Below, in pieces: positions 2,973 to 48,810 of a stretch of 64,000 nt of DNA (position 1 is its first letter; each line of letters starts with the position of its first letter). The position numbers were made by a program, and so were the translations under genes. The DNA is from Escherichia coli (lineage in GTDB: Bacteria; Pseudomonadota; Gammaproteobacteria; Enterobacterales; Enterobacteriaceae). The notes beneath the pieces were generated by a model that did not search any database, was not told the origin of the DNA, and saw only the letters and a program-made list of their open reading frames with translations. The stretch is taken from assembly GCF_050320075.1 (NCBI RefSeq), contig NZ_CP190018.1; one strand, given 5' to 3'.

Positions 2973-3189
2973 TCTGAACGCTGCACTTTTTTACCTATCT
3001 CTTAAATAGTCATTTTCAATACAACTTTTTCTTTTTCATCACAGCCTTAATGCTCCTTAGATAATAATCATTATCTAACAATGAGATACCTAATTCTTAG
3101 CGTGCCTGTTAACCCACACATCAGGGTCTATGCTTATTAAAAGCAGGAAAAAAGCATGTTTTACGGTAAAGCCCCTGCGTTTGCTGGGT

Positions 3190-3210
3190 TGAACTGATAA
3201 TCATTATCAC
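3190..3210 (+). promoter_or_regulatory. Fur box in the sufA promoter region
   Basis: GATAATCATTATC at 3196-3208 matches the 3' 13 nt of Fur consensus GATAATGATAATCATTATC; about 45 bp upstream of sufA ATG. Confidence 0.7.
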
Positions 3211-3254
3211 TAACATGCTGTTATACGCTGAAAGCGATGAAGTGAGGTAAATCG

Positions 3255-10529: not shown

Positions 10530-11942
10530 TTACAGGACGTGAACAGATGCGGTGTTAGTAGTGCCGCTCGGTACCAGTGCACCAGAAACCATAACTACGA
10601 CGTCACCTTTGTGTGCCAGACCGCTCTGCAGAGCCAGTTCTTTACCCAGACGGTAGAAATCATCAGTAGAAGTGATCTCTTTAACCAGCTGCGGCACAAC
10701 GCCTTTGCTCAGTACCAACTGATGAGCCGTTTTTTCGTTGGTGGTCAGTGCCAGGATGGTGGCATCCGGGAAGTATTTACGTACTGCGCGAGCAGATTTA
10801 CCGCCCTGGGTAGCAACCACGATCAGCGGGGCATCCAGTTTTTCAGCAGTTTCAACGGCACCACGGCATACCGCTTCGGTAATGCGCAGTTTACGGTTGT
10901 CATTGTTGAACTCGAGACGGCTGTTCATCACGCGGTCGGTACGTTCGCAGATGGTCGCCATGATAGAAACCGCTTCCAGCGGGTATTTACCTTTTGCGGA
11001 TTCACCAGACAGCATCACTGCGTCAGTACCGTCGAGGATGGCGTTTGCAACGTCACCGGCTTCTGCGCGAGTCGGGCGTGGGTTTTTGATCATGGAATCC
11101 AGCATCTGGGTCGCAGTGATAACGACTTTACGTGCACGGATACATTTTTCGATCATCATCTTCTGGGCGAAGATAACTTCTTCTACCGGGATTTCTACAC
11201 CCAGGTCGCCACGCGCAACCATGATGCCGTCAGAGGCTTCGAGGATTTCGTCGAAGTTGTTGAGGCCTTCCTGGTTTTCGATTTTGGAGATGATGTGGAT
11301 GTTTTCGCCGCCGTGCGCTTTCAGGTGCTCACGGATTTCGATAACGTCAGAACGCTTACGAATAAAGGAAGCAGCGACAAAGTCTACGCCTTGTTCGCAA
11401 CCAAAGATCAGGTCCTGTTTGTCTTTTTCAGCCAGTGCTGGCAGGGCAATGGAAACGCCAGGCAGGTTCACACCTTTGTTTTCACCCAGGTCGCCGTTGT
11501 TCAGCACTTTACAGATAACTTTGTTACCTTCAATGGCAGTAACTTCCATACCGATCAGACCATCGTCAACCAGTACGGTGTTGCCAACAGACAGGTCAGT
11601 AGTGAAACCTTCATACGTTACCGCAACCATTTCGCTGTTGCCGATAACAGATTTATCAGTGGTGAAAGTAAAGGTCTGACCCGCTTTCAGAGAAACGTCG
11701 TTACCGCCTTCCAGTTTCATGGTGCGGATTTCCGGACCTTTGGTATCAAGCAGGATAGCGGCGGTTTTACCAGTTTTGCTCATCACGTTGCGCAGATTCT
11801 GAATGCGCTGACCGTGTTCTGCATAGTCACCATGAGAGAAGTTCAGACGCATAACGTTCATGCCAGCGTCCAGCATTTTAGCTAACATCTCTTCAGATTC
11901 GGTTTTCGGTCCGATGGTGCAAACAATTTTGGTCTTTTTCAT
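10530..11942 (-). CDS. pykF: pyruvate kinase I (FBP-activated), 470 aa
   Basis: Internal ATG at 11942 ([20 protein letters not shown]...) gives 470 aa; track ORF is extended upstream to 542 aa. Confidence 0.95.
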
Positions 11943-12498
11943 GACAGTCTTAGTCTTTAAGTTGAGAAGGATGGGAGAAACTTGCTTTCTGGGCGCACTG
12001 CCGGAAAGCGAATCCGGTATTACGAAAGTGGTGGTGCCTCGCTCTAAGGATAGGTGACATCGAAAAAGCGTGCAGAGGAATGTGTGCTTGTGTCTCAGCC
12101 CAACGTGAGTGCCTGTTTTTGAGTCGTTGAGTTCTACAGTCCAAAGTGCTGAAACCATTCAAGAGTCAATTGGCGCGCATTATACGCTGAAATTAATCCA
12201 AAAGGAAAACAAAAACAGCGTTTCAAAAAATATACAACTTGTAAGACAATAAATTGTTATCAAAGATTTAACGTTCCAGGGAAAAGGTTACGCAAAAACT
12301 TCGCTGTTTGCGCAACGTCTGGTGCCGGGGTTGTCACTGTGAAGATAAGTGAAAGTTCATCCGGTGTATAAATACATCATCGCTCAATTGCTACAGTTAA
12401 AATAATTTATCGCGTTATTTGTCTGATTTTGTTTGATTTTTGTCTAATTGGTTAGATTGATATATGCTGATAGTTGGCATGATAAATAGGTATAAAGA

Positions 12499-12708
12499 AT
12501 GGGAAATCGGACAAAAGAGGATGAACTGTACCGAGAAATGTGCAGAGTTGTCGGTAAAGTTGTGCTGGAAATGCGCGATCTGGGGCAGGAACCAAAGCAT
12601 ATTGTTATCGCAGGCGTATTACGTACAGCATTAGCCAATAAACGCATTCAGCGCAGTGAGCTGGAAAAGCAGGCGATGGAAACCGTCATTAACGCACTGG
12701 TAAAATGA
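12499..12708 (+). CDS. fumD: small protein YdhZ (fumarase D), 69 aa
   Basis: 69-aa ORF MGNRTKEDELYREMCRVVGK... between pykF and ydhY. Confidence 0.8.
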   Translation: MGNRTKEDELYREMCRVVGKVVLEMRDLGQEPKHIVIAGVLRTALANKRIQRSELEKQAMETVINALVK

Positions 12709-12948
12709 CCATTCAGGATGAGGCGATAAGCTTCATCCTGATATTCTTGCTTCAGTTGCGGTCCAGTTAATCATTCTAAATAACAACTGCTGAAATTATA
12801 CGAATTTCGGTATGTATTTTAATTTATAGCGATAATGTTATTTTTATTTTCTGCAATGAACGTCACAAATAATTGTCGCTTAAGTTAAATTTATTTCAAA
12901 TGATAATAAATATCAGTTCACTTATAATTTCTTGCTTTGTAATTTTAA

Positions 12949-12962
12949 TTGATAACGATCAA
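12949..12962 (+). promoter_or_regulatory. FNR box TTGAT-AACG-ATCAA upstream of ydhY
   Basis: Perfect match to FNR consensus TTGAT-N4-ATCAA, about 200 bp upstream of ydhY ATG in an AT-rich region. Confidence 0.75.
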
Positions 12963-13163
12963 TGTTAAGGGCTCAGAATAATCACATTATTTTTTCTCCT
13001 AATCATAAAGGATTAGTTTATCGGCGTTAAATCTTTTCTCATACACTATCGGGTTAGGGAAAATATCTGGTGTTGGGGACAGAGTCAGCAGCGTATTAGT
13101 TGAATGCTTAATATCAGACTGCTGAATTGTCAGCACTGTGTTTGCGAAGAGGATGCGAAATAA

Positions 13164-15913
<2,750 letters not shown>

Positions 15914-48537: not shown

Positions 48538-48810
48538 TGAAAAATCTCCTGTTCACCATGAAACGCCACGCAAGCATCCCTCATGGTCAAAGTATATGGC
48601 ATATGTGAATCCATGGTTACATGTTCTACCAAATATGAGCAAATCATAATGAAAGTAGGATCAACCAATTATAAACAAAATATTCATGATGATTATTGAT
48701 TTGAAGATAATGTTTTACTACCAACGGTAAAAATCGGTCATTCCGCATAGTATTCACGAAAAGTTTATGTTTGAGTGGTGCGCAAACGTCAGATTGAAAA
48801 AGGATGAACT

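Follow-up and report, generated by a model that had tools for sequence, protein, structure and literature searches.

What is the function of the strongly AT-rich DNA that precedes ydhY in Escherichia coli, and which regulators act on the operon through it? The tract in question occupies positions 12780-12962 of a 64,000-nucleotide stretch of E. coli DNA (contig NZ_CP190018.1; hereafter the window), in what annotation by match to complete genomes identifies as the fumD (ydhZ)-ydhY intergenic region. On balance, we favour the view that the tract is the upstream regulatory region of the ydhY promoter (PydhY), where silencing by H-NS, relief of that silencing by Fur, and activation by FNR would meet, with repression by NarL/NarP exerted from further downstream and a probable contribution from ModE. 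The elements concerned are as follows (strand where assigned; promoter coordinates relative to the transcription start).

12767-13021, full AT-rich segment (maximal-scoring segment, 23.5% G+C), which takes in the FNR box and the core promoter and ends near +24
12806-12833, candidate ModE operator TTCGGTATGTA-TTTTAA-TTTATAGCGAT, a palindrome centred at -178.5
12896-12920, Fur-like box of two overlapping 19-mers, -102 to -78
12902-12914, core of the Fur-like box, GATAAT-A-AATATC, -96 to -84, matching the 6-1-6 core at 11 of 12 positions
12949-12962, FNR box TTGATAACGATCAA, a perfect match to the consensus TTGAT-N4-ATCAA, centred at -42.5 (class II site), 96% conserved
12985-12990, plus strand, -10 hexamer CATTAT of the ydhY promoter, a conserved block at -13 to -8
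12998, plus strand, transcription start (+1), placed from the published -42.5 position
13000-13015, NarL/NarP 7-2-7 site TAATCATAAAGGATTA (TAATCAT-AA-AGGATTA), +3 to +18, outside the tract
13034-13049, peaks of Fur in chromatin immunoprecipitation with exonuclease treatment (ChIP-exo) of strains 042, W, and BL21(DE3), +37 to +52, in the 5' untranslated region (5'UTR), 115-130 bp upstream of the ydhY ATG

The composition of the tract is exceptional in its surroundings. Its 183 bp have a G+C content of 23.0%, against 50.7% for the whole window, and this is the lowest value in the 64 kb; 183-bp windows equally low make up 0.04% of all, and every one of them lies at the ydhY tract. The only other 183-bp window at or below 30% G+C in the 64 kb is at 48589-48772 (29.5%). 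A preliminary description made from the sequence had reported about 180 bp of AT-rich DNA, containing A and T runs and ending in an FNR box. The low G+C and the downstream end agree with this, as 12962 is exactly the last base of the perfect box; the extent was set too short, the tract being the upstream two thirds of the AT-rich segment 12767-13021. The runs are accounted for by composition: there are four homopolymer runs of at least four bases (all T), compared with 4.9 +/- 1.9 in shuffled sequences. TpA steps are not enriched in the tract (23 versus 27 in shuffles), and no helical phasing of AA/TT at 9.5-11.5 bp was detected there (P = 0.34).

We compared the region among relatives by a YdhY search with one genome per species, which gave 30 loci, and aligned the 23 distinct intergenic regions from Escherichia and Citrobacter, in both of which fumD lies upstream of ydhY at similar spacing. 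The orthologous tract has 23-32% G+C in these 23 sequences, while the adjacent 5'UTR has 41-50%; the low G+C is not peculiar to this strain. Even where column identity falls below 70%, A+T still makes up 69% in the tract, versus 52% in the 5'UTR. Composition is thus conserved beyond sequence, a pattern that agrees better with selection for an H-NS-type substrate than with neutral drift.

Published data for K-12 can be placed directly on this DNA. Between K-12 and the window, the intergenic region shows four substitutions and, in the 5'UTR, one 1-bp indel, and since the differences are so few, K-12 coordinates map within a base. The indel is one extra A at window position 13029. The binding of a nucleoid protein, which the preliminary description had proposed for the tract, is already documented by chromatin immunoprecipitation (ChIP). 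An extended H-NS region found by ChIP on microarrays (ChIP-chip), 1750995-1753982 in U00096.2, corresponds to window 11683-14670 (Myers 2013, Table S3). 'Promoter island' 1752593_318 (ydhY/ydhZ), one of 78 such islands, corresponds to window 12754-13072; it was bound by H-NS in every ChIP study compared, and it carries a GIST island flag (Shavkunov 2013, PMC3661553). The H-NS data of Grainger, Oshima, and Kahramanoglou at the locus are cited here as summarised in later papers. The occupancy has a consequence for FNR: the mean log2 ratio of immunoprecipitate to input for FNR ChIP-chip at ydhY rises significantly from 0.29 in the wild type to 1.82 in an hns stpA strain, and the authors' interpretation of such sites is that H-NS limits FNR binding there (Myers 2013). 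Overproduction of SlyA, an H-NS antagonist, raised expression of ydhY-T 2.5-fold (Curran et al. 2017).

The FNR-dependent promoter itself is well defined. The ydhYVWXUT operon is directly activated by FNR from a site at -42.5, given as TTGATCGTTATCAA at 1752702 (Myers 2013, Tables 1 and S6, citing Partridge 2008), and this coordinate (U00096.2) falls exactly on window 12949-12962. The published -42.5 position puts the transcription start at 12998, and the anaerobic sigma-70 peak in ChIP followed by sequencing (ChIP-seq), at 1752666, corresponds to the same base; sigma-70 occupancy at the promoter rises from 47 to 177 without oxygen (Myers 2013). In vitro, the ydhY promoter is preferred by the sigma-S holoenzyme (Maciag et al. 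2011). A perfect box and a conserved -10 element, the features of a class II FNR promoter, are both present.

The best-conserved block in the upstream tract points to Fur. The run AATGATAATAAAT at 12899-12911 is the only one of at least six columns at 87% identity or more in the tract, and it belongs to the Fur-like box. Its two overlapping 19-mers match the Fur consensus GATAATGATAATCATTATC at 14/19 (12896-12914) and 13/19 (12902-12920). The orthologous box reaches 15/19 in Citrobacter and 16/19 in Leminorella and Limnobaculum (Budviciaceae), and a spacing of 47-49 bp to the FNR box is maintained, the other families included. As a positive control, the same scan gave 14-16/19 at 3057-3075 and 3190-3214, the strongest matches in the window; these are placed at the sufA promoter by their distance from ydhY, and the sufA Fur box itself reaches 15-16/19.

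Published expression data show that Fur acts positively on the operon. In strain CFT073 the ydhY RNA ratios to the wild type are 0.072 in a fur mutant, 1.0 in a ryhB mutant, and 0.109 in the double mutant; the fur mutant ratio for ftn in the same table is 0.165 (Banerjee et al.). As RNA is lost in the fur mutant and the ryhB ratio is 1.0, Fur activates ydhY independently of RyhB. In other strains the log2 change in fur mutants is -7.3 (W3110), -4.7 (042), and -2.9 (BL21) (Gao et al. 2023). The drop in ydhY RNA in the published data is 14-fold to 150-fold. The operon is barely expressed in MG1655 (about 0.2-0.6 units), versus about 100 in W3110 under the same protocol (Gao et al. 2023). The maximum of the CFT073 Fur ChIP-seq peak is at 1910890 (Banerjee et al.). 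As the intergenic regions of CFT073 and the window align without indels, the maximum maps to 12890, 6 bp from the Fur-like box.

A precedent for activation of this kind is ftnA, whose mechanism, in which Fur reverses silencing by H-NS, has been cited as a model for Fur activation (Beauchene et al. 2015). According to the account in PMC4676285 of Nandal et al. 2010, it is Fe2+-Fur that reverses H-NS silencing at the ftnA promoter. The two promoters share RyhB-independent activation by Fur and an upstream Fur-like site in AT-rich, H-NS-bound DNA. Several upstream Fur sites have reportedly been described at ftnA, against one proposed box at about -90 in ydhY. Unlike ftnA, ydhY also needs FNR, its anti-silencing step is only proposed, and its ChIP-exo signal maps elsewhere.

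A second conserved element, further upstream, resembles a ModE operator. The E. coli ModE consensus is ATCGNTATATA-N6-TATATANCGAT, as quoted by Rodionov et al. 2004 (PMC545781), and the palindrome at 12806-12833 matches it at 17 of 20 specified positions. No other site in the 64 kb scores above 14/20, and one of 10,000 shuffled tracts gave a score of 17 or more (P about 1e-4). Established operators scored in the same way gave 16 (modA), 16 (moaA), 17 (dmsA), and 18 (napF). An orthologous site scoring 15-18 is found in 20 of 22 Escherichia and Citrobacter loci, at a distance to the centre of the FNR box of 136 bp (Escherichia) or 143-149 bp (Citrobacter), and Limnobaculum allomyrinae too has a 17/20 site upstream. 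Within the element, the specified positions carry 1.41 bits and the N positions 0.75 (Mann-Whitney P = 0.003). Variability is highest at the two isolated N positions (0.21 and 0.51 bits), and the CG dinucleotides are 96-100% conserved. The flanks, 12780-12805 and 12834-12861, have 0.50 and 0.74 bits, respectively, with indels. YdhV is a molybdo-pterin enzyme with a bis-Mo-MPT (molybdopterin) cofactor according to the literature, so molybdate control of the operon would make sense.

We give roughly even chances to the proposal that 12806-12833 is a working ModE operator, which would make PydhY a four-input promoter, with FNR reporting oxygen, NarL/NarP nitrate and nitrite, Fur (acting against H-NS) iron, and ModE molybdate. 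The candidate site is apparently unreported and would be a modest new lead. A similar arrangement is reportedly present at napF, which is said to combine FNR, NarP/NarL, and a far-upstream ModE operator. Both are anaerobic, FNR-dependent molybdoenzyme operons with nitrate-regulator input and a ModE palindrome well upstream (18/20 in napF, 17/20 in ydhY). They differ in that NarP activates napF from upstream, while at ydhY the 7-2-7 site is at +3 to +18 and the regulators repress; the ModE-like site of ydhY, at -178.5, is also farther upstream than that of napF and is only predicted.

An alternative reading of the same palindrome is that it comprises two H-NS nucleation sites or serves a different dimeric regulator. 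The H-NS nucleation motif is said to be TCGATATATT / TCGATAAATT, and each half of the palindrome (TCGnTATATA) resembles it; moreover, the palindrome lies within the H-NS-bound region. Our literature search, outside which lay RegulonDB, RegPrecise, and the ModE data from systematic evolution of ligands by exponential enrichment (SELEX; Kurata 2013), found no report linking ModE with ydhY, which also favours such an origin. We nevertheless regard it as less likely than not. The element has the form of an inverted repeat whose halves contain conserved CG dinucleotides and are separated by a constant 6 bp, its most variable positions are exactly those that the consensus leaves as N, it scores as high as real operators, and the operon encodes a molybdoenzyme.

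The nitrate regulators act on the operon, probably from outside the tract. Nitrate and nitrite repression of the ydhY operon by NarL/NarP is the subject of Partridge 2008 according to several papers that cite it; the repression mentioned in the preliminary description is thus in the literature. The tract as its operator region is another matter. On that account, NarL-P would bind degenerate heptamers upstream of or overlapping the FNR box and block FNR or RNA polymerase. Such a role would suit a protein that gives extended footprints on AT-rich DNA at other promoters. One-mismatch heptamers do occur in the tract, at -93 to -87 and -80 to -74, weak 7-2-7-like matches with five mismatches overlap the FNR box, and nitrate/nitrite repression is what Partridge 2008 is cited for. 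However, the 455-bp intergenic region contains no perfect TACYYMT heptamer, and its one-mismatch heptamers (7) are not enriched over dinucleotide shuffles (7.9 +/- 2.7). The two in the tract were rejected as NarL sites: one belongs to the Fur-like block, read on its reverse strand, and conservation is lacking in the other (CACTTAT). Inside 12787-12948 there is no 7-2-7 pair with four mismatches or fewer.

A far better candidate is the 7-2-7 site at 13000-13015, which has two mismatches to TACYYMTNNAKRRGTA and is the only good pair in the intergenic region. Nearly all Escherichia and Citrobacter orthologues have it, 51-52 bp from the first base of the FNR box, with 97% identity over the 23 sequences; in Limnobaculum the site TACCCCCTTAGAGGTA has the same spacing and is nearer to the consensus, with one mismatch. 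A NarL operator within the tract is therefore improbable in our judgement. The conserved candidate site just downstream of the start, outside the tract, could block polymerase directly. Like dmsA and frdA, class II FNR promoters that NarL/NarP repress, ydhY combines a perfect FNR box at -42.5 with heptamers near the start through which nitrate would repress. It differs from them in its single conserved 7-2-7 pair at +3 to +18, which could serve both NarL and NarP, and in the iron input and probable molybdate input from its AT-rich upstream tract.

The tract might also be a spacer without function, AT-rich as a result of horizontal acquisition and bound passively by H-NS. The GIST genomic island flag, the general binding of AT-rich DNA by H-NS, and the poor conservation of the distal parts 12780-12805 and 12834-12861, with their low information content and indels, are what such a history would leave. 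The tract nevertheless contains near-invariant blocks, and conservation in the alignment increases toward the promoter (mean column identity):

12780-12840, 0.60, with indels
12841-12900, 0.73
12901-12948, 0.89
FNR box, 0.96
7-2-7 site, 0.97

In addition, Leminorella and Limnobaculum have the same order of AT tract, Fur-like box, FNR box, and 7-2-7 site in a different genomic context, without fumD. Together with the retention of AT-richness while the sequence turns over, and with the Fur ChIP and regulation data, this recurrence makes a functionless spacer quite improbable. The ydhY/ydhZ region is itself listed among the H-NS-bound, GIST-flagged 'promoter islands'; most of these are described as silent clusters of promoter signals, and the ydhY region differs in being a working, regulated promoter with conserved operator-like blocks.

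RNA polymerase at class II promoters binds upstream of the activator with the C-terminal domain of its alpha subunit. The tract could act mainly through DNA structure, as an UP-element-like or curved region that receives this domain upstream of FNR or sets the promoter geometry, and a conserved ATTTTA (12942-12947) does adjoin the FNR box; we consider this very improbable, as there is neither an excess of A/T runs nor helical phasing, the short conserved flank may belong to an extended FNR consensus, and the conserved blocks at -90 and -178 are left unexplained.

We thus return to the tract as the upstream regulatory region of PydhY, for which the following sequence of events can be proposed. 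The maintained low G+C would make the tract a substrate for the silencers H-NS and StpA, with specific operators embedded in it. An H-NS filament over about 3 kb centred on the tract limits the access of FNR to -42.5, as the published ChIP data show. Iron-loaded Fur would then bind the conserved box at about -90 and relieve the silencing; activation by Fur is published, and we infer the site and the anti-silencing. Under anoxia FNR then acts as a class II activator, which is published. NarL/NarP would repress in response to nitrate and nitrite through the +3 to +18 site rather than the tract, as its sequence and conservation suggest, and the ModE-type palindrome at -178.5 would probably add a dependence on molybdate.

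Several observations weigh against this scheme. In the case of Fur, the E. coli box taken by itself is a marginal match (14/19; P about 0.05 against tract shuffles), and in the fur mutant of KO11 the change was of opposite sign (+1.08; Gao et al. 2023). The ChIP-exo peaks lie about 130-150 bp downstream of the proposed Fur-like box and about 150 bp from the CFT073 ChIP-seq maximum, and no 19-mer matching at 12/19 or better occurs under them in 13000-13163. The ChIP-exo table of Gao et al. brackets the known sufA Fur box within about 12 bp; because the method is accurate at sufA, the discrepancy at ydhY is not a coordinate shift. Our attempt to reconcile the ChIP-exo with the ChIP-seq data failed, the former peaks being reproducibly at +37 to +52. 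This conflict lowers confidence in the exact Fur site, not in regulation by Fur. In the case of H-NS, the literature yielded occupancy data only, and no expression data in which an hns deletion raises ydhY were found there. Matches to the high-affinity TCGATAAATT-like motif are not above those in shuffles (2 versus 1.6; 7 versus 4.7), and A-tract phasing is absent from the tract. As for ModE, the input from the palindrome at -178.5 is probable by inference from sequence, and the likeness of its half-site to the H-NS motif bears on it as well. Finally, NarL may protect parts of the tract.

The regulation of this operon is of interest because YdhYVWXUT, a molybdo-pterin, iron-sulphur complex, is a conserved enterobacterial anaerobic oxidoreductase with no assigned substrate. 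The inducing signals, namely anoxia, iron sufficiency, probably molybdate, and the absence of nitrate, narrow the conditions in which its function should be sought. The same set of signals may help to account for differences among laboratory strains, some of which express the operon while in others it is silent. The ydhY locus would offer a compact second case, after ftnA, in which to test Fur as an opponent of silencing by H-NS, in this instance coupled to FNR. The greater part of this picture is already published, and the gain from the present analysis is modest: a proposed location for the Fur box, a new placement of the NarL/NarP site, and a prediction of ModE control that can be tested. 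Only this prediction and the discrepancy between the Fur ChIP data sets might surprise a specialist.

The surroundings of the tract, and one further element within it, are given below.

12499-12708, plus strand, fumD (ydhZ)
12713-12741, plus strand, terminator-like hairpin of fumD (12-bp stem, six G-C pairs) with a T-rich tail, at the upstream edge of the intergenic region
fumD-ydhY intergenic region, 455 bp, followed by ydhY
12852-12867, CRP-like element TGCAA-N6-TCACA, conserved, centred at about -138.5, which is atypical for CRP (low confidence)
13164-13790, plus strand, ydhY coding sequence, the first gene of ydhYVWXUT

The 1-kb stretch around the tract is 100% identical to that of strain YZLc1-3, and all but one of 5426 complete genomes (5425) contain it. 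In the alignment, a hairpin equivalent to 12713-12741, of different sequence, is found in all orthologues. The CRP-like element reads TGnGA-N6-TCACA in Citrobacter, and three Citrobacter loci have a perfect left half (TGTGA) with a degenerate right half (TCCCA). Between this block and the Fur-like box (12890-12896), Citrobacter has about 11 extra bases that form a palindrome, TGAAAT-N3-ATTTCA, which is absent from Escherichia.

Scans with the consensus sequences of IHF, Fis, SlyA, and ArcA gave nothing above shuffles. No Rfam family matched 12400-13400 at E values up to 1, and the only small open reading frames in the region are of 21-45 codons, without support. In a simple scan, promoter-like sites in the region numbered 5, versus 3.3 +/- 2.0 in composition-matched shuffles, which is not significant. 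Inside the tract there are two sigma-70-like matches of 10/12 with a perfect TATAAT: 12795-12822 on the minus strand, which is antisense, and 12900-12928 on the plus strand, which overlaps the Fur-like box. They fit the 'promoter island' label, and their frequency is no higher than in shuffles.

Two loci in Citrobacter depart from the usual arrangement. In C. amalonaticus AUH_CA_2023_1 (L030, 1272-2500), about 1.2 kb separate the end of fumD from ydhY, rather than the usual 0.5 kb or so, with about 750 extra bases between fumD and the ydhY control region; the FNR box, the 7-2-7 site, and the ModE-like site still adjoin ydhY. Citrobacter sp. NCU1 has, besides the copy at L008, a second, more divergent ydhY (88% identity) on contig 92 (L024). 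The L024 locus has 45% G+C and no fumD. Of the control elements, a perfect FNR box and a weak Fur-like match are retained, and both the 7-2-7 site and the ModE-like site are absent.

The 166-nt 5'UTR of ydhY, which matches no Rfam family, has a conserved feature of its own. The last 24 bases before the ydhY ATG (13140-13163, GTTTGCGAAGAGGATGCGAAATAA) are near-invariant in Escherichia and Citrobacter, beyond what a Shine-Dalgarno sequence accounts for, and this block is preceded by a small terminator-like hairpin, TGCTGAATTGTCAGCA, at 13120-13135.

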